This document shows positions 32,894-44,131 of a stretch of DNA of 64,000 nucleotides, one piece after another. A program made the translations under genes and the position numbers. The stretch is from an uncultured Clostridia bacterium. Lineage in GTDB: Bacteria; Bacillota; Clostridia; TANB77; CAG-508. A model generated the notes under the pieces. It was not told where the DNA came from and made no database searches. It saw only the letters and a list, made by a program, of their open reading frames with translations. The DNA is taken from positions 4,613 through 68,612 of the forward strand of contig CAKOXK010000002.1 of the NCBI GenBank assembly GCA_934130085.1, in the 5' to 3' direction. Position 1 is the first letter of the stretch. Every line of letters starts with the position of its first letter.

Positions 32894-34369
32894 CTATAAT
32901 CTTTCAAAAATTCTTGTTCTCTTTGATTTTCTTATTTCAATATTCGAACCCTCTGGCAATATTACATTGTATCTTTTCTCTAACATATCCGTATCAAATA
33001 ATTCTACATTTATTCTGTTCTCTTCTGCTGAGAGCTTAATGTATAGATTTTCAAGTGATACTACTTGTGATGTAAATATTCCTCTTAAAAGTCTATAATC
33101 TAAAGAATCATTATTAGATACTGGGGCAATTACATGACATTTAATTGCCTTAGGTATTGCTTTTTCTTCTAATTCATATAAATTCATTTTGCAATTTGGT
33201 ACATAATTTAAATACCTTAATTCATATATAATGTCAAGCATTGCTCTTTTATCTGTAACATTTTCTATCTTTTTTTCGAACATCTTTATGAATTCTTTTT
33301 GTAATTTTGATATATCAGTTTTTTCTTCATAAAATTTTATTTCATATTGAAGTCTGTCTTTTTCTTTTACATACTCATTTGGATTTAACATTCGGTTTAA
33401 TTTTTCAATTTCACTCAAAATGCCTACCCTTTGTTTTTGTACTAATTCTTCATAATGACTTACACTAAACACCTTTTTTTCATCAGGAAGCTTGCTATTA
33501 TATTCCATGTATTCTTTTTTTAGAAGTTGCTGATTACTCAAAGTTTCGTCTATTCTCTTAATCTGTGTAAGTAAATTTCTTTTATTTTCAGCAATTTCAA
33601 TAACATATTCAGATTGATGCTTCATCTTTTCAAATAATTTTTTATCATCTGACAATTTCTTTAGTATTTCTTCATTTTTTGTTTTATCATAAGACATATA
33701 AAATTGCACTGCCACTCTTTTTAGTTCTTCAAAAAATTCACTCGAAACATTATTTTTAATTTCTTCAACTGTTATGTTATCAACAAACTCGTATCCTAAT
33801 AAGTATGATAAGAATATATAGATTATGTTGCATTCTGTGCTTTCAATCTCATGTCCTTCAATTGACCATGTCCAGCCATTAAAATCTCTAATTACTTCTG
33901 ATTTTGAAATGCATTTTCCAATATTTACTGCCGTTATTATTGCCTGCTCTTCAATTGAATATGTACTTTTCAACGGTTGAATTGCTGCTTTTGAAATTCC
34001 ATATAATAATGTTTTTTCATTTGGATAAGAAATAACATTTTTTTGCATTTCGTTTTTCGCACTCTCCATCATTATTTTGCATTTATTTTCCTTGAGTTCT
34101 TTTTCTAATTCTGATTTTGGAGTTGCAATCATTATATTCTTACAATTACATTCTACTTCTCTTGTTAGTTCATCAAAAAACTCTTCTCTTGACGGAACTT
34201 GCCTTTTTACAATTTCATAATTATCGTAACTATCATCAATTCTGTAACACATTCCTAATAAAAGATTTTCTGATTCTTGAGAAAAGTTCTTTGTTTCTGC
34301 AATATTAGCAAGTTCTTCTTTATAATCTTTTGATAAAAACTTTCTTTTCAAAGCTTTCTCCTTTTTCAT
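32894..34369 (-). CDS. hypothetical coiled-coil protein, in operon with ftsK (4-nt gap)
   Basis: 491-aa ORF; no recognised family. Confidence 0.5.
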   Translation of the reverse strand: MKKEKALKRKFLSKDYKEELANIAETKNFSQESENLLLGMCYRIDDSYDNYEIVKRQVPSREEFFDELTREVECNCKNIMIATPKSELEKELKENKCKIMMESAKNEMQKNVISYPNEKTLLYGISKAAIQPLKSTYSIEEQAIITAVNIGKCISKSEVIRDFNGWTWSIEGHEIESTECNIIYIFLSYLLGYEFVDNITVEEIKNNVSSEFFEELKRVAVQFYMSYDKTKNEEILKKLSDDKKLFEKMKHQSEYVIEIAENKRNLLTQIKRIDETLSNQQLLKKEYMEYNSKLPDEKKVFSVSHYEELVQKQRVGILSEIEKLNRMLNPNEYVKEKDRLQYEIKFYEEKTDISKLQKEFIKMFEKKIENVTDKRAMLDIIYELRYLNYVPNCKMNLYELEEKAIPKAIKCHVIAPVSNNDSLDYRLLRGIFTSQVVSLENLYIKLSAEENRINVELFDTDMLEKRYNVILPEGSNIEIRKSKRTRIFERL

Positions 34370-37172: not shown

Positions 37173-39023
37173 TTATTTTAAATGTAAAATAACTCCCGCA
37201 TTTAAATTTTGAATTAGTTCTTCGTTTTTTAAGCCTAATGATTCCTTTACTTCTTTTATAATCGCTTCTCTGTCGTAACCCTCATTGCAAATTAATAAAA
37301 TACCGTTTTCAATATCCTTACCATCGAATACTTTTTTAATATTTTCTTCATTTGCATTTCTAAGTCTCATTATGTATGAATTATCAATTTTAGTAAATAA
37401 GTAAATATCATCTAAAAATCTATTATTATTCTCATTAAAAACATATAGAGCTGGTACATCAGATATTTCTTCTACCCTTTCAGCAACATTATTCATTCTT
37501 TTAAAAGTAAAATCTAATTGCTTGCCTGTAAAAATTGGAGAAATAGTTGTAAACGTAAATATTAAAACTAATGCAATACTTGATACTGTACTAGGATTTA
37601 TAGAATTTCTTTTTTTGTGATTAATATTTGTATGGCTATCACGACTGCAATTCTCTGCTACCTTTTCCAAAACAAAGTTTGTGATATATATAATAAAAAT
37701 CATGGTAACAGAAATTATAGGCATCATGTATCTAAGTTCTTTGTATGGTGTAATTTTAGCAACTAATACAAAATACACGATCATAGGAAATAAAATTAAC
37801 TTTATTAATTTATTTACCTTCACACTAAAGTCAACAGTATCAATATTAGTATTAATATTAGTATTAGTCTTTGTGTTCATGTTTGTATTTATATTAATGT
37901 TATTTTTGTAATTTTTACTTTTCTGTCTAATAATTGCTAATAAGCTTATAATTGAAATTGCAATTTCTATCTTGCCAAATAAATTCTTTCCTAAAATTCC
38001 AAGATAGATTATAATATCTTTTCCCAAGGCTTTAAAATCAATAAAATTGCCTGTTGCTCCTACTCCTCTGTATCCATTAAAAATATGATTTATTGAATAC
38101 GGAAAAATAGCAAGTGATATTCCCGCAGCAACTACAAAAGTAGAAATATATTTTATAAGATTTTTGTATTCCTTATTTTTTATATATTTTATAACGAAAA
38201 TTATGAAAAGCACTCCAATATAAATCAACGTGTAATAATGAGTTAATGAGCTTAAAACCGTAGCTATAAGTACGGTGATTAAATCTTTAAACTCTAGCTC
38301 TTTTTTCTCATACAAGTTCATGTGAATATATGTTGAAATAAGCACAAACAAATTTGCAAGTTCATACATTCTTATATATGCACTCGTATCTAATGCCCCT
38401 AAGCAAAGTCCTGTAAAAAGCAATGTTAAAAGTGCTTTTTTATTATCTTTAAATAGCTTCTTTGCAATTAAAAATATAAAAACACTCGAAAAAGCATAAA
38501 TAATCATATTTAAAATAAGTCCAGACCATTTTGAAAAATTCCCCACAGTAAATAGGGATGCAATTCTAAGTAGCAAGTAAAATAATGGTGGATGAACATC
38601 ATTTTTTTGATTTTCATAAACTGGTTTAAAATTTGAGACTTCATCATTCCCAATTTCGAAATAATCTTTATAATAATCTTTTGAATGCCATGTATCATAA
38701 AAATCAGAATTATTGGTTATTTCTATTTTATTATAATTCATTAAGCCATAAGAATAAGCTTCATCCATGTGAAAATATTCTTTTCTATAGCCAACAAATA
38801 CTCTCACTGCAATTTGCAGTAAAACAATTACAATAAATAAAATTACAGTTAATCTCTTGCTAAAATCTTTTGTAGAAATGCTTTTTATATTTGTTCTATG
38901 TTTTGCATTAGAATCTTGCATGCTAAATTCCTTGTTATTAAAACTTTTTCTATTTTGCCTTCTATTATAAGGTTCTTTTTCTTCCAAAATATTGTTACTA
39001 GATGTTTCTTTGTTCATATACAT
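37173..39023 (-). CDS. GT-C-fold membrane glycosyltransferase-like protein (ArnT/PMT-like), putative
   Basis: 616 aa with more than 10 predicted TM helices and HMDEAYSYG in the first loop; internal NINTN low-complexity segment. Confidence 0.4.
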   Translation of the reverse strand: MYMNKETSSNNILEEKEPYNRRQNRKSFNNKEFSMQDSNAKHRTNIKSISTKDFSKRLTVILFIVIVLLQIAVRVFVGYRKEYFHMDEAYSYGLMNYNKIEITNNSDFYDTWHSKDYYKDYFEIGNDEVSNFKPVYENQKNDVHPPLFYLLLRIASLFTVGNFSKWSGLILNMIIYAFSSVFIFLIAKKLFKDNKKALLTLLFTGLCLGALDTSAYIRMYELANLFVLISTYIHMNLYEKKELEFKDLITVLIATVLSSLTHYYTLIYIGVLFIIFVIKYIKNKEYKNLIKYISTFVVAAGISLAIFPYSINHIFNGYRGVGATGNFIDFKALGKDIIIYLGILGKNLFGKIEIAISIISLLAIIRQKSKNYKNNININTNMNTKTNTNINTNIDTVDFSVKVNKLIKLILFPMIVYFVLVAKITPYKELRYMMPIISVTMIFIIYITNFVLEKVAENCSRDSHTNINHKKRNSINPSTVSSIALVLIFTFTTISPIFTGKQLDFTFKRMNNVAERVEEISDVPALYVFNENNNRFLDDIYLFTKIDNSYIMRLRNANEENIKKVFDGKDIENGILLICNEGYDREAIIKEVKESLGLKNEELIQNLNAGVILHLK

Positions 39024-39045
39024 ATATCCTTTTCATTTATATATT

Positions 39046-39125
39046 CTTTTATTTATCTGCTTTTTATTTATACGTTTTTTATTTGTCCGTTTCTTATTTG
39101 TATGTTTTTTATTTGTGTTTTTTAG
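39046..39125. repeat. degenerate 14-15-bp tandem repeat (TTTTTATTTGTNCG-like, about 5 units) just upstream of the GT-C gene
   Basis: Visible by direct inspection. Confidence 0.6.
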
Positions 39126-39425: not shown

Positions 39426-41594
39426 CTAACCAGGCTCAGATATCTCATATTTGCTCATCCAGTAACCTGGTAACTCAACACCTGCAAAAGTAAATGCTTC
39501 AGGTACTTTATATATATGGTTTTCGTCTTCATGATTTGTAACATCCTTTGTTATAAAGTTAATGTCATATCCATTAGTACTTTTATCTATTTTATATTCA
39601 TATCTTGGTATCCACACCCAATATGCAATCTTGCCATTTGCTTTAGTTACAATGTTTGCCCATTTTCTTTGAGCATAATCATACCAATTTTGAGGTGCTG
39701 GTTGTGAAATTGGTATATCACTATGTTCTGTTCCATCATCATCCCAGTAAACATAATATGTGTTTTCTTTATCAAGATTATCTAAATTAACTTGTATTTT
39801 CTTTGATGATACGTTCTTTCTTCCTAACGGTATATTATCTTTCATTACACAAACATCATGATCTTTTGTTGAATCTATTCCAGTTATATTGCATGGCAAA
39901 ACGCCTGTAAATTTAAGATCTCCATCAATATATACTCTGTAGTCTTTTCCCTCTTCTTGGTTGTTTACTGAAACCGTTAGATTATTGTTGCAATCATAGC
40001 CTGTTGCGATTTCTTCTGCAGTATCTTTGGTCTCTGATATTTCATATTTGCTTATCCAATAACCTGATAATTCAACTCCCTTAAACGTAAATGCATCTGG
40101 TACTTTGTATATACTATTCTGACTGTTGCTATTAGTGAAATTTTTTGATACAAGTTCTAGACTTAGCCCTTCTTTTTGTGATGGCTCCATTTTATATCTA
40201 TAACGAGGAATCCATACCCAGAAAGTTACCATATTATTGGTCACAGTTACTATATTAGCATATTGTTTTTTACCATAGTTATACCAATTATCTGGAGCAG
40301 GACCTTTATCAATTCTGTTACCAATTTGCATATTTTCACCGTTCTCATCAAATGTTACATAATATGTGGCTTCTGGAGCCAAATTGCTTAAATCAACTAT
40401 CACCTTTTTTGTTGTAACCTGATTTCGTGCTATTATCTTACCATTTTTGGTTACACATATATCATATTTCTTATTTTCCTTTAGTCCGGTAATATCATGT
40501 GGTAAGCTCCCTTTATAATTTTCTATTCCATCTAGATAAACAGTGTAGTCTCCATTCTCCGTGTCATCACAATTTACAGTTATAAAATTAATATCAGTTC
40601 CAAGAGCTAATTGTGGTGAACCATTTTCGCAAACCTCATATTTGCTCATCCAGTAGCCTGCTAATTCCTGATTTGCAAATGTGAATGCTTCTGGTACTTG
40701 ATAATTTGAAGCAAGGCTTTCTGTTGTTCCATCTTCTTTTTTATATTCATTGGTTGTACTTATAAATCTTGCATCTACAGTTTGATCCGACTTAGTTATG
40801 TATGAATACCTTGGTATCCATACCCAATATGCAACCTGATTTCCTGTTACCGTTACTATATTTGCATACTTTTTCTGACTGCTACTATAATCATACCAAT
40901 CTGCTGGAGTATCTACCCTATCAATTCTGCCTGCTATACTTTGATTTCCGTTCTCATCATACGTTACATAGTATGTAGATGTAGGTTCCATATTTGATAA
41001 ATCTGGGGTTTGCATGAATACATCTCCAACTTTTTTGTAAGTTGTGCTTTCTGGAGTTTTATCACCTATATCTGTTTTTCCTCCATCATCTGAATCTTGT
41101 CCTTTGTTATCATCATCCTTACTGTCATCGCCACCATTTTTATCAACAAAATCTTGCCAGCTGTCATAGCTCCACACTGGAATATTTGCTTCAAAACACC
41201 ATTTAACACGTTTTTTATTGTTTGTATAAAAATAATATGTCTTGTTATTTTGAATGATTACTTCCTTTTCATAGTCGCTTTTTATTTCAGGTATAATCTT
41301 TTTTATTTTATCTTGCCCTACTAATCCAACACTTATTGTAAAATCAGGATTTTCAATTTGCTCCCCAGAAACATACATAGTTGCCTCTTCCATATATTTT
41401 TTCATCTGACTTACAAAAGCTGTTTTCTTGGTTCTTTCCAGTAAACCATTTTCACTAAAAACAGTAGCTATTGCAACGCCTGCAATAATTAGTAAAACTA
41501 TAATTGTAACTACAAGTGCTATTAAAGTTATACCATGGTTTTCCAAGCTGTTATTTTTATGTTTTAATTCAGGCTTTAACTTTTGTTTTTGCAT
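39426..41594 (-). CDS. type IV pilin-like (prepilin-type N-terminus) surface protein with three tandem ~200-aa repeat units; start overlaps the 3' end of the DGR RT gene
   Basis: N-terminus ...ENHGITLIALVVTIIVLLIIAGVAIA. The three repeats each end in GYWMSKYE(V/I) and contain WVWIPRY. The repeats are also visible at the DNA level (about 600-bp period). Confidence 0.6.
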   Translation of the reverse strand: MQKQKLKPELKHKNNSLENHGITLIALVVTIIVLLIIAGVAIATVFSENGLLERTKKTAFVSQMKKYMEEATMYVSGEQIENPDFTISVGLVGQDKIKKIIPEIKSDYEKEVIIQNNKTYYFYTNNKKRVKWCFEANIPVWSYDSWQDFVDKNGGDDSKDDDNKGQDSDDGGKTDIGDKTPESTTYKKVGDVFMQTPDLSNMEPTSTYYVTYDENGNQSIAGRIDRVDTPADWYDYSSSQKKYANIVTVTGNQVAYWVWIPRYSYITKSDQTVDARFISTTNEYKKEDGTTESLASNYQVPEAFTFANQELAGYWMSKYEVCENGSPQLALGTDINFITVNCDDTENGDYTVYLDGIENYKGSLPHDITGLKENKKYDICVTKNGKIIARNQVTTKKVIVDLSNLAPEATYYVTFDENGENMQIGNRIDKGPAPDNWYNYGKKQYANIVTVTNNMVTFWVWIPRYRYKMEPSQKEGLSLELVSKNFTNSNSQNSIYKVPDAFTFKGVELSGYWISKYEISETKDTAEEIATGYDCNNNLTVSVNNQEEGKDYRVYIDGDLKFTGVLPCNITGIDSTKDHDVCVMKDNIPLGRKNVSSKKIQVNLDNLDKENTYYVYWDDDGTEHSDIPISQPAPQNWYDYAQRKWANIVTKANGKIAYWVWIPRYEYKIDKSTNGYDINFITKDVTNHEDENHIYKVPEAFTFAGVELPGYWMSKYEISEPG

Positions 41595-42655
41595 TTTCCC
41601 TCCCCGTCTAATGGTTCTTCCTTATTTTCTCTATATATCCATTCACATTTGTCTATTACATTATCTATCAATTTTCTTGAGCTTGCATGAGAAGCATGAC
41701 CTATCCATGCATTTAAGCTTGCACTAACTTTAGTAATATTAAAATCTTTGTTTTTAAATTTTTGATTCCATTTTTTTATTTTTCTATAAATCTTTTTCTT
41801 ATTGCCTTTTAAAATTTTAATATGATTATCTTTTATTTTATATCCACAAAACTTCACACCTTGAGTATTTTTAAAATAATTAGTTTTTTCATTTAGTTCG
41901 AGTTCTAAGTTTTCTTTTAAATAATGTTCTAACTTATTTTTTACATCTTTGCATTCTTCTTTGTTATTCAATAATAATATAAAGTCATCCATGTACCTTA
42001 TATAGTACTTTACTTTTAACTTTTCCTTTACGTAGTGATCAAGCTGATTTAAATAGATATTTGCAAAAAATTGTGAAGTATAATTGCCTATTGGAATGCC
42101 CTTTTTGCTAGTAGTTCTTTGGTAAATGATATTTTTTGTAAATTTTAATAATTTCTTATCTTTTATATATCTTGATAAAATATTGTATAAAATTGATTTA
42201 TCTATGCTGTAGAAAAATTTTCTTATGTCGCATTTTAAAATGTAATAATCTTTATTTTTGTTATACATCTTTTTCATGTAATTTAATAATTGAATTATTG
42301 CTTTATGCACTCCTCTTCCTTCTATGCAAGCATAAGTATCACTTATAAACTTCGGAAGAAAAATTGGCTTTATAAATTCTTCTACATACCATTGATGCAT
42401 TACTCTATCTCTAAATGGTAGTGCCCAAATTATTCTCTCTTTTGGTTCATAGATTTTAAATTTTCTATAGCTTCCAATTACATATCTATCTTTGTAAATA
42501 TCTAATAGCATACTAGTAATGTTAGTTGCTAAGTTCATTTTGAATAAAACTACTTCTTTGTTTTCATGTTTTTCTTTTGAAGCTCTCTTATATGCTTTTA
42601 ACATTTTATCAAATTTAATCTTTTCTTCAAAAATATTACCTATCCTCTTTGGCAA
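41576..42655 (-). CDS. diversity-generating retroelement reverse transcriptase
   Basis: RT motifs including IPIGNYTSQFFANIYLNQLD (the DGR-specific IGxxxSQ) and RYMDDFILL (YMDD). No maturase or endonuclease domains. Adjacent avd and TR/VR. Confidence 0.88.
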   Translation of the reverse strand: MPKRIGNIFEEKIKFDKMLKAYKRASKEKHENKEVVLFKMNLATNITSMLLDIYKDRYVIGSYRKFKIYEPKERIIWALPFRDRVMHQWYVEEFIKPIFLPKFISDTYACIEGRGVHKAIIQLLNYMKKMYNKNKDYYILKCDIRKFFYSIDKSILYNILSRYIKDKKLLKFTKNIIYQRTTSKKGIPIGNYTSQFFANIYLNQLDHYVKEKLKVKYYIRYMDDFILLLNNKEECKDVKNKLEHYLKENLELELNEKTNYFKNTQGVKFCGYKIKDNHIKILKGNKKKIYRKIKKWNQKFKNKDFNITKVSASLNAWIGHASHASSRKLIDNVIDKCEWIYRENKEEPLDGEGKCKNKS

Positions 42656-42999
42656 CTTTTTATCCAGCCTCCTACCATCTTTCCTATTTCTTCAATTTGT
42701 GCATTCCAGTTCATATAGTTTTTATTTGTTATATATTTATATTCGTATGAAAGTCTAACCATTGTTTTTATTACATAGAGTTCTATATCAATTTCATTCA
42801 AGTATCTTACCTTTCTTTCTATGTCTGCTTCTTTCCAAGCCCAGATTACCTTTCTTAAAATATTATATAGTTCGTTTTTTATATCTGTACATAAATCGAA
42901 CCTTTCACTTTTAGGAAACTTTTGTAATAAGTTTTTTGAATAAAATATTAAATTGTTTATTTTTTCATAAATTATTAATCTATTATCTTTTTTAGGCAT
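42640..42999 (-). CDS. avd: accessory variability determinant (Avd, four-helix-bundle protein)
   Basis: 119 aa, basic and helical; resembles the Avd family. A 16-nt overlap with the RT gene implies translational coupling. Confidence 0.7.
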   Translation of the reverse strand: MPKKDNRLIIYEKINNLIFYSKNLLQKFPKSERFDLCTDIKNELYNILRKVIWAWKEADIERKVRYLNEIDIELYVIKTMVRLSYEYKYITNKNYMNWNAQIEEIGKMVGGWIKSCQRG

Positions 43000-43150: not shown

Positions 43151-43290
43151 AGTCCCGAGCCAACACACAACACCGCACGAGACGAATTGTTACTGTTACT
43201 ATTACCATTGTTGTTATTATAGCCAAAGAGCGCATTGTTGCTACGTTTGAATACAGGGTTGCCAGAAGTAACAAAATTAGCGTTGGACGA
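43151..43290 (-). other. DGR template repeat (TR), 140 bp, intergenic between the target gene and avd
   Basis: 128/140 identity to 43473-43612. All 12 mismatches are at TR adenines on the coding (minus) strand. The TR is Asn-codon (AAC/AAT) rich in the target frame. Confidence 0.9.
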
Positions 43291-43468: not shown

Positions 43469-44131
43469 TTAAAGTCCCGAGCCAACACACAACACCGCAC
43501 GAGACGAATCGCTACTGCTACTAACACCATTGTCGTTATTATAGCCAAAGAGCGCATTGTAGCTACGTTTGAATACAGGGCCGCCAGAAGTAACAAAACC
43601 AGCGCTGGACGAGCTTTTCCAGTTTTTGGTTTCTAGCGTAGCATCTCCTCTTTTTGCTACCTCTCCTGTATATATATTAACATATCTGCTATCTGCATTT
43701 TTCAATTTTGACATATAATCATTTGATGTATTGTAAATACCTGCTACATATTCGTATGTCCCATCTGCCATTTGAAAAATTCCTGTTGCATTGCCTGTTG
43801 TTGAAGCATCTGACCTACCTGATGGAGCACTTCCATAAGGTGATGCTGCAAGCATTGCTGCTGCTCCCCATTCAGTATTCTTAGCCATGTGTACATCAAC
43901 TCCATTATTGCTTGAATCTAAATAAGTGGTGCTATCTAATTGAGCTTTTTTACCTAGTGTTCCTCCTTCAACTTCCATTTGCCTTATTTTTACAAAGAAA
44001 TCATTTGCTGTTGTATTCTTTAAACTAGTTACCCCAGGTCTTGATTGAACCGCCGCATTTACTTTTCCTGTTAACATGAAAGCAGTTAAAATTCCAACAG
44101 TAAAAACTATTGCTGACTTTTTTATTTTCAT
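43469..44131 (-). CDS. DGR target protein: small secreted variable protein (220 aa, SPase-I-type signal peptide, C-terminal variable region)
   Basis: Signal peptide MKIKKSAIVFTVGILTAFMLTGKVNA; the last ~46 codons are the VR, homologous to the TR through the stop codon. Confidence 0.85.
   Translation of the reverse strand: MKIKKSAIVFTVGILTAFMLTGKVNAAVQSRPGVTSLKNTTANDFFVKIRQMEVEGGTLGKKAQLDSTTYLDSSNNGVDVHMAKNTEWGAAAMLAASPYGSAPSGRSDASTTGNATGIFQMADGTYEYVAGIYNTSNDYMSKLKNADSRYVNIYTGEVAKRGDATLETKNWKSSSSAGFVTSGGPVFKRSYNALFGYNNDNGVSSSSDSSRAVLCVGSGL
43473..43612 (-). other. DGR variable repeat (VR) at the 3' end of the target gene
   Basis: See the TR entry. Substitutions are at AAY codon positions 1 and 2 (for example TR AAT to VR GAT, AAC to AGC/GAC/TAC/GGC). 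Confidence 0.9.

Follow-up and report, generated by a model that had tools for sequence, protein, structure and literature searches.

Introduction

Among the variable proteins of diversity-generating retroelements (DGRs), one described kind has a C-type lectin (CLec) fold of the formylglycine-generating enzyme (FGE) type. TaqVP (PDB 5vf4) and TvpA (2y3c) belong to it, and it forms category 'b' of Wu et al. 2018 (PMC5758913). In TaqVP, the CLec core starts at residue 112, and the region preceding it wraps around the core (PMC6328139). Here we analyse a DGR locus of an uncultured Clostridia bacterium in which such a domain seems to be divided between two genes. The locus lies on a 64-kb stretch of DNA (contig CAKOXK010000002.1, positions 4,613 to 68,612), which as a whole we call the window and whose positions we count from its first letter. 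Its DGR diversifies a small gene, S, and next to the DGR reverse transcriptase (RT) gene stands a gene for a protein of 722 amino acids (aa), the subject of this study. With a probability of roughly 55%, we take the 722-aa protein to be the invariant, cell-anchored half of a two-gene surface-binding module, whose other half would be the secreted CLec-fold protein S. Compared with proteins of the TaqVP and TvpA type, the N-terminal subdomain would thus be triplicated on an anchored protein and the CLec core secreted alone. A further difference is that neither of the two proteins reaches any Pfam threshold, that of FGE-sulfatase included, and no catalytic role is implied.

The 722-aa protein also resembles the modular type IV minor pilins, such as PilB and PilC of S. 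sanguinis or CofB of enterotoxigenic E. coli, in which bulky grafted modules with a presumed binding role come after a class III-like leader and a hydrophobic helix (PMC8179133). Unlike these, it has alanine for Glu5, its pilin scores stay below threshold, no pilus machinery was found in its neighbourhood, and its grafted modules are probably lectin half-domains instead of complete domains. CofB, located at the pilus tip, binds the separately secreted CofJ; this pair is the closest functional analogy to a scaffold with a secreted partner. In archaea, bindosome-type proteins carry class III signal peptides that serve surface display outside pili, and such leaders are found on many large proteins of unrelated function. 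Similarly, the ITLIAL leader described below stands on many different proteins, which in this case are bacterial. In Bacteroides, DGRs act on tip adhesins of type V pili (bioRxiv 10.1101/2024.11.15.621889), and there, as probably here, a chromosomal DGR of a gut bacterium varies an adhesive component that is displayed on the surface and connected to a fibre or anchor protein. The Bacteroides systems differ in phylum, in anchoring chemistry (type V pili with lipoprotein-type processing) and in architecture, since the variable protein is itself the pilus subunit and has no detachable partner.

Variable DGR proteins with a CLec fold are a known kind, and so are modular display proteins of the pilin-like type. 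In our literature search, we found no description of a split domain whose one half is the variable protein and whose other half occurs in several copies on a distinct, anchored scaffold. The same search returned no description of an Ala5 ITLIAL leader class, nothing on the motif ITLIALV and nothing on a DGR combined with a prepilin.

Results

Five features follow each other on the minus strand in the order S, template repeat (TR), avd, RT and 722-aa gene. They are listed here together with the variable region (VR) and the parts of the 722-aa gene; ORF stands for open reading frame and nt for nucleotides.

43469..44131, minus strand: S, the DGR target gene (220 aa); ORF without Pfam hit
43473..43612, minus strand: VR, the last 46 codons of S; 12 differences from the TR, every one at a TR adenine
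43151..43290, minus strand: TR, 140 nt, encoding SSNANFVTSGNPVFKRSNNALFGYNNNNGNSNSNNSSRAVLCVGSG
42640..42999, minus strand: avd, encoding the DGR accessory protein Avd (119 aa); Pfam bAvd at E = 1e-25, NCBIfam DivGenRetAVD at 98.8 bits against a cut-off of 80
41576..42655, minus strand: DGR RT gene (359 aa), with the motif IGNYTSQ; Pfam RVT_1 at E = 2e-20, phrog_1423 at E = 3.5e-113
41598..41605, minus strand: Shine-Dalgarno-like site GGGGAGGG, located 3 nt before the 722-aa ATG and still inside the RT gene, at its 3' end; read from the sequence
39426..41594, minus strand: the 722-aa scaffold gene ("big"), an ORF starting with ATG
41466..41594, minus strand: leader and hydrophobic tract (residues 1-43), a basic leader of 21 aa ending in Gly and then the 22-residue tract ITLIALVVTIIVLLIIAGVAIA with Ala at +5
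40629..41009, minus strand: module A1 (residues 196-322); from motifs, self-comparison and family profile
40401..40628, minus strand: module B1 (residues 323-398), fibronectin-type-III-like spacer according to the module B profile
40035..40400, minus strand: module A2 (residues 399-520); from motifs, self-comparison and family profile
39795..40034, minus strand: module B2 (residues 521-600), fibronectin-type-III-like spacer according to the module B profile
39429..39794, minus strand: module A3 (residues 601-722), ending in ...GYWMSKYEISEPG, the predicted fission point relative to single-chain relatives

Single-chain relatives and fold prediction

In thousands of relatives, the parts that are separate in the window form one chain. 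An anchor, a single module A and a directly following S-like domain share one ORF at 16 genome loci and in 79 fetched proteins, and this single-chain A-S family is very large (7744 of the 8000 candidates scored in a search with one such protein had E<=1e-3). We used P0224 for the mapping. The module A profile aligned to its residues 94-222 (hhalign probability 99.7%, E 6e-27) and residues 28-216 of S to its residues 228-450 (probability 99.8%, E 5e-30). Module A and S thus cover consecutive, non-overlapping parts of P0224 with a gap of 5 residues. When the end of the 722-aa protein (...GYWMSKYEISEPG) was joined to mature S (AVQSRPGVTSLKN...), the product was collinear with ...GxWVGKYETSxxxxxxIxPNxTSLRN... 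of the single-chain proteins, with 31-42% identity over both halves. Module A is thus homologous to the subdomain directly N-terminal of the CLec core in single-chain FGE-type CLec proteins with a pilin-like anchor and S to the remainder, and the profile alignments put the break between the 722-aa protein and S exactly at the A/S junction.

Other split loci show the same boundary. The large protein ends a few residues from its final KY-x-x motif in 10 of 12 split loci, the two others being the most divergent (L014 and L016), with a different C-terminal extension, and S starts with a Sec signal peptide in all 12 split loci examined. The combination of a non-overlapping mapping onto consecutive parts of one chain with adjacency of the two genes is that of a split form, and an intermediate, P0345, supports this assignment. 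P0345 (L171:124-4090) combines one A-S unit with three orphan A modules in a single chain, and 60 nt downstream of its gene there is a stand-alone S gene whose product has a signal peptide.

The 471 fetched proteins comprise four architectures: A only (2-6 copies), S only, one A followed by S, and tandem A-S units. Giant relatives have four or five tandem units, namely P0412 (4516 aa), P0431 (2338 aa), P0425 (3713 aa) and P0463 (4340 aa). Each A directly precedes an S in P0412 (five units) and P0431 (four units); P0425 and P0463 are less regular, and some of their S domains lack a detected A. One single-chain A-S member (L145:420-3564) is itself a DGR target, with a VR at 1881-1997, a TR at 2179-2295, changes at TR adenines only and the RT on the opposite strand. 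The 722-aa protein of the window has neither of the two marks of an FGE-type CLec variable protein, that is, a CLec core with a C-terminal VR and a match of this VR to the TR.

Direct database comparisons were negative for the window proteins. Pfam, NCBIfam, PHROGs and PDB sequence searches gave nothing above threshold for the 722-aa protein, its single modules or S, and phmmer of the 722-aa protein against PDB sequences returned no significant match. The Pfam model FGE-sulfatase (PF03781) hit neither the 722-aa protein nor S; on single-chain relatives, it scored 20.5 and 18.8 bits against a cut-off of 23.3, and P0295 has a precomputed PF03781 hit. The 722-aa protein has more than 2237 homologues, mostly from gut metagenomes and metagenome-assembled genomes (MAGs) of uncultured Clostridia; among the 120 listed, none is functionally named and only a handful have a precomputed Pfam hit. 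An exhaustive profile search found module A in 2526 representative clusters (50% identity), and S has 97 homologues.

We then turned to structure. The AlphaFold2 model of P0224 (84 homologues in the alignment) reached a predicted local distance difference test score (pLDDT) of 76 and a predicted template modelling score of 0.77. Its confidence was highest at residues 141-280 (pLDDT 90-96) and unbroken across the A/S junction. For this model, Foldseek ranked TaqVP ahead of Mtd; the TaqVP match (E 1e-7) spans 387-413 alignment columns, practically the entire length of TaqVP. TaqVP was also first in a profile search of PDB sequences (E 7e-4), where HPAF..GxWxGKYE..PNxTS..HMxKNxEWGAxA aligned to its residues 57-142. 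The end of module A (HPAF..GxWxGKYE) falls on TaqVP residues 57-75, ahead of the CLec core. On these models, S would contain the entire CLec core together with the VR, and module A would correspond to the N-terminal subdomain that packs on the core in FGE-type variable proteins. The motifs WVWIPRY and GYWMSKYEV may correspond to the first strands of canonical FGE (mvlIPgG..., fyidkYEVT), which we note as a lead only; the support that was put to a test is the fold match to TaqVP.

An earlier reading of the window, made from the sequence alone, had not recognised the domain family of the 722-aa protein. This holds insofar as there is no Pfam family or name for it, but module A is now placed, with the hhalign probability given above, as an N-terminal subdomain of the FGE-type CLec family, and module B is fibronectin-type-III-like. 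The sequence-only reading had also named assignment to a well-known unrelated domain as an outcome that would speak against it. No such assignment emerged; the placement of module A ties the protein closer to the DGR target.

The DGR and its target

The DGR is genuine and has a single target, S, because RT, Avd and TR are all present, the VR differs from the TR in an A-specific manner (104 of 104 non-A positions identical, 12 A-to-N changes), and a TR scan that ignored A positions found no VR besides 43473-43612 across the 64 kb. The VR is hypervariable: comparing 12 close orthologues, 31 of its 47 positions vary, versus 34 of 173 positions elsewhere in S. Single Asn-templated VR positions hold up to 9 different residues among 12 S sequences that are 88-94% identical (including P0121-P0131). 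So many natural VR variants show that the DGR is active in the wild, with active adenine mutagenesis of S. In the S product, a predicted Sec signal peptide, cleaved after VNA26, precedes the CLec core. At 43604-43623, across the 5' edge of the VR, there is a short GC-rich inverted repeat that scored as terminator-like on either strand; since it falls within the coding sequence of S, a role as terminator is improbable.

The gene pair across loci

To see how S and the large gene are arranged elsewhere, loci were fetched from both sides, 80 genome loci by the large protein and 80 metagenome loci by the S profile. A total of 167 loci were scanned with hidden Markov models for module A and S as well as with the RT and Avd sequences of the window. 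At the locus of P0017 (L004), a homologue with 40% identity to the 722-aa protein, there is no RT or Avd, and the immediate upstream gene encodes 215 aa with 56% identity to S. Loci L005, L006 and L007 show the same pattern of an S-like gene beside the large gene. The 167 loci contain 56 stand-alone S ORFs, 29 of which have at least 1 kb on both sides, and a same-strand ORF with several A modules lies within 800 nt of S in 27 of these 29 testable loci. The two exceptions (L001 and L003) represent the window's own lineage, in which only TR-avd-RT stands between S and the large gene. In 19 loci S precedes the large gene, and in 27 it comes directly after it. Variants of the pair occur as well: L113 and L120 have one S gene and, behind it, a tandem of two scaffold genes (~740 and ~769 residues), and two tandem S genes precede one scaffold gene in L124.

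DGR parts accompany a stand-alone S only in the window and in L001-L003, L008, L088 and L118, the contigs of L088 and L118 being too short for the large gene. In the other S/large-gene pairs, neither RT nor Avd occurs within up to 10 kb. L008, L088 and L118 each show A-specific TR-to-VR changes, so that DGRs target S there too. In L008 (412-7989) the order is avd-RT-S(VR)-TR-large gene, and the large gene has at least 5 A modules (a reading frame of 1423 residues). This layout implies an independent acquisition of the DGR or a rearrangement. Taken across loci, the S/large-gene pair is the conserved unit, obligate across uncultured gut Clostridia, to which a DGR was probably added more than once.

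These findings bear on the position of the 722-aa gene within the window. The sequence-only reading had emphasised that its start overlaps the stop of the RT gene by 19 nt, and the coordinates agree, with the RT stop TAA at 41578-41576 and the ATG of the 722-aa ORF at 41594-41592. The co-transcription with the DGR that was deduced from this is plausible: in addition to the overlap there is the Shine-Dalgarno-like site, no terminator-like site was found between RT and 722-aa ORF, and promoter-like matches are no commoner than in shuffled sequence. Because the TR-avd-RT cassette sits between S and the scaffold gene in the window lineage, scaffold and RT most likely share one transcript there. 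A link to the DGR itself did not survive the comparison of loci, where the conserved partner is the target gene S. The 722-aa protein does not show the consistent co-occurrence with RT, Avd and TR expected of a cassette component. Because most S/large-gene pairs come without RT or Avd and the order differs in L008, the coupling of the large gene to the RT is peculiar to the window lineage and an accident of where the cassette is positioned.

From the same overlap and the missing terminator one could also argue that the 722-aa protein is a DGR accessory factor, needed for mutagenic retrohoming by way of its coupling to the RT, or else a second, cryptic target of the DGR. We give this explanation next to no credence. 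Besides the many pairs that lack RT and Avd, the large gene of L008 comes after S and TR and not after the RT, and the protein is predicted to be exported or membrane-anchored, whereas retrohoming is cytoplasmic. Neither is there a TR-like stretch in the gene: the best TR match inside the 722-aa ORF covers 40 of 104 non-A positions, which is background, and differences from a 95%-identical orthologue are evenly spread without a hypervariable patch. The sequence-only reading was thus right that the gene is not a second VR target. Gene linkage and domain fusion lend strong support to its suggestion that the 722-aa protein serves the diversified protein as partner or display scaffold, while the physical interaction is something that we infer.

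Module architecture of the 722-aa protein

The 722-aa protein consists of the pilin-like leader and hydrophobic helix, an N-terminal region, an acidic linker and then A1-B1-A2-B2-A3, that is, three A modules of ~122 aa and two B spacers of ~78 aa. YANIVT or WANIVT occurs at residues 243, 445 and 645, WVWIPRY at 257, 459 and 659, and SKYE at 317, 515 and 714; the protein stops 4 residues past the last SKYEIS. The sequence-only reading had described three tandem units of ~200 aa. The motifs it quoted are each present three times, but the layout is A-B-A-B-A and not three equal units, and with 722 aa the protein does not deserve the label "giant". The repeat units are mutually 48-49% identical. 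As had been noticed earlier, the periodicity is visible at the DNA level too, with four direct-repeat families at a spacing of 594-612 nt (three with three copies, one with two). Tandem Repeats Finder did not report this ~600-nt periodicity of the 722-aa gene because the copies are too diverged.

Three A modules are the rule, being present in 112 of the 121 family members examined; some members carry 2 or 4-7. WAN, VWIPRY, PxAF and GxWxxKYE are invariant in module A, in orphan copies and S-fused copies alike. For module B, a profile of 38 sequences matched PDB fibronectin at an E value of 9e-8 and many other fibronectin type III (FN3) domains, and 12 of the 38 sequences had weak hits to Pfam fn3 (PF00041), which makes it a fibronectin-type-III-like spacer. 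The window copies of module B alone gave no Pfam hit.

The N-terminal leader

Class III signal peptides are defined by a short hydrophilic leader ending in Gly or Ala and a following stretch of ~21 mostly hydrophobic residues (PMC8179133). The N-terminus of the 722-aa protein reads MQKQKLKPELKHKNNSLENHG up to the terminal Gly of the leader and ITLIALVVTIIVLLIIAGVAIA from there on, which fits this definition in both leader and hydrophobic tract, and the pattern recurs in homologues. After the tract come a conserved GENG break and an amphipathic helix. The Glu at +5 is absent, as the window protein has Ala in this position. Among 112 leader-bearing ORFs (median length 431 aa), 103 have Ala at +5, 5 have Glu and 4 have Ser. 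We conclude from the sequence that the N-terminus resembles a class III anchor.

The same leader (K/R-G, then ITLIALVITIIVLLILAGV...GENGIL..A..AK; in the window at 41466-41594, elsewhere in loci L020-L087) heads many unrelated proteins in MAGs of uncultured Clostridia, often several per genome. Of the 80 genome loci, 55 match the 722-aa query only over about residues 1-90. The Ala5 ITLIAL leader may mark an undescribed surface-sorting class.

Is the 722-aa protein then a true pilin? It could be a modular type IV (minor or tip) pilin that is processed by prepilin peptidase and placed on a type IV filament like PilB and PilC of Streptococcus sanguinis, with the A-B repeats as adhesive or partner-binding module. 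This would be compatible with docking of S, as CofJ docks on CofB. The leader ending in Gly, the 22-residue hydrophobic tract and the amphipathic helix agree with a pilin, and the family profile weakly matched the pilin PilE1 of PDB 8pfb (E 0.037) as well as MshA, geopilin and archaeal flagellin. Pfam N_methyl (PF07963), with a cut-off of 21.2 bits, reached 21.5 bits in one relative, L039. Even the lack of Glu5 has a parallel, since tip pseudopilins such as GspK are known to lack it. However, Ala at +5 is shared by 103 of the 112 leader proteins, and it is implausible that all of these, most of them large, are tip subunits. On the window protein itself, N_methyl gave the entire sequence 11.3 bits and its N-terminal 70 aa 15.9 bits, and NCBIfam TIGR01710 (GspG) scored 12.6 bits against a cut-off of 88.85, all of them below threshold. 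In the P0224 model, helices 18-40 and 45-73 reached a pLDDT of only 45-73, and there was no confident globular pilin head domain. Prepilin peptidase or pilus-assembly genes (peptidase_A24, PilB, PilC, PilM) were found neither among the 46 window ORFs scanned with Pfam, a scan that ended short of the ribosomal-cluster ORFs at ~46.7-64 kb, nor in the flanks of L001 and L004-L007. We therefore consider a true type IV pilin improbable, even though modular pilins are widespread (PMC8179133).

The sequence-only reading had called the N-terminus a type IV prepilin-like leader with Ala for Glu5 and had proposed to look for prepilin peptidase and type IV pilus genes. Leader, tract and Ala are as it described them, but what remains is a resemblance: pilin models stay below threshold, and the proposed search came back empty in the ORFs and flanks covered.

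Genomic surroundings

The window is chromosomal, with a ribosomal protein cluster (by synteny with L001), secY, ftsK, the dnaK operon and a polysaccharide gene cluster. Among the 2.9 million viral contigs of IMG/VR, a module A relative is encoded by just three (L168-L170). The family is thus essentially cellular, and together with the chromosomal setting this makes a phage origin of the 722-aa gene unlikely.

Directly downstream of the 722-aa gene, a PMT_2-like membrane glycosyltransferase of 616 aa is encoded at 37173-39023 (minus strand), with an Asn/Thr-rich low-complexity insert (NININTNMNTKTNTNINTNIDT). As a candidate partner it was rejected, for it adjoins the scaffold gene only in the window lineage (L001). 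A T-rich 15-nt tandem repeat occupies 39022-39124. Just after ftsK, at 32894-34369 (minus strand), lies an ORF of 491 aa without Pfam family, which has a 485-aa counterpart in the same position in L001.

Discussion

We propose that an ancestral anchored A-S protein was split by gene fission. S would have gained its own Sec signal peptide, and module A would have been triplicated on fibronectin-type-III-like spacers. The exported scaffold would be held in the membrane, or possibly in a pilus-like fibre, by its class III-like N-terminal helix, and secreted S would dock non-covalently on each A module, re-forming the former intramolecular A/S interface. A cell could in this way display up to three identical copies of its current S variant. 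Multivalent homotypic binding would then arise from one 140-nt VR; the scaffold would not need to change, and the mutable part would be kept apart from the anchoring part.

The docking of S in trans is the step that we infer from the linkage and fusion of the two halves. In its full form, the proposal is that of a plug-in system, in which a secreted CLec subunit rewritten by the DGR self-assembles in trans on the invariant docking modules of an anchored, pilin-like scaffold, three in number here and at least 5-7 in relatives, so that multivalent identical sites stem from a single 140-nt VR. In concept this would be akin to a constant multivalent frame onto which one variable chain is loaded. 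We put this forward tentatively and rate its chances at somewhat less than even.

Several observations weigh against a two-gene binding module. By the definition used for TaqVP, the CLec core in S is complete, and module A is expected from the model to fold alone, so that neither half would depend on the other for folding. A chimera of residues 598-722 of the 722-aa protein and mature S, modelled with AlphaFold2 using single-chain homologues as alignment, gave a pLDDT of 64-89 per 10-residue block over the first 120 residues (module A) and of 30-50 for S, and Foldseek found no hit below E 0.1 for this chimera model, which is therefore uninformative about docking in either direction. Moreover, neither the module A profile alone nor the S profile alone hit any PDB sequence, and the structural placement rests on the predicted model of a relative. 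Finally, there is one S gene for three to five or more A modules.

Part of this evidence would suit a different explanation, namely that scaffold and S are co-regulated without binding each other. The A modules would then have a binding or structural role of their own, S would be a free, soluble hypervariable lectin, and adjacency and fusion of the two would stem from a pathway that they have in common, for instance through one ligand or niche. A self-contained, beta-rich module A is what the block-wise pLDDT values predict, S brings its own Sec signal peptide along with its full CLec core, and the low confidence of S in the chimera model provides no docking information. Yet in one-chain forms A immediately precedes S, both in the 79 single-unit proteins and in the tandem units of P0412 and P0431, and the split falls at an exact point. 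Orphan and S-fused copies of module A have the same invariant residues, and the confidence of the P0224 model continues unbroken across the A/S junction. Given these points, we regard co-regulation without binding as rather unlikely, and prefer the two-gene module of anchored scaffold and secreted S.

For the question of how the chromosomal DGR variable proteins of gut Firmicutes reach the cell surface, stay there and act, the locus described here offers a concrete, testable architecture. If docking is real, it would explain how avidity can come from a single VR and how the mutable part is separated from the anchoring part. The pair would also be a natural two-component display scaffold; CLec-fold variable proteins have already been considered for molecular display (PMC6328139). 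In addition, our analysis proposes a role for two unnamed large families (>2000 and >7000 database clusters) and draws attention to an unusual Ala5 prepilin-like leader common to many proteins of uncultured Clostridia. If the plug-in system holds true, the widespread ITLIAL (Ala5) leader would define an uncharacterised surface-display or fibre pathway in gut Clostridia.

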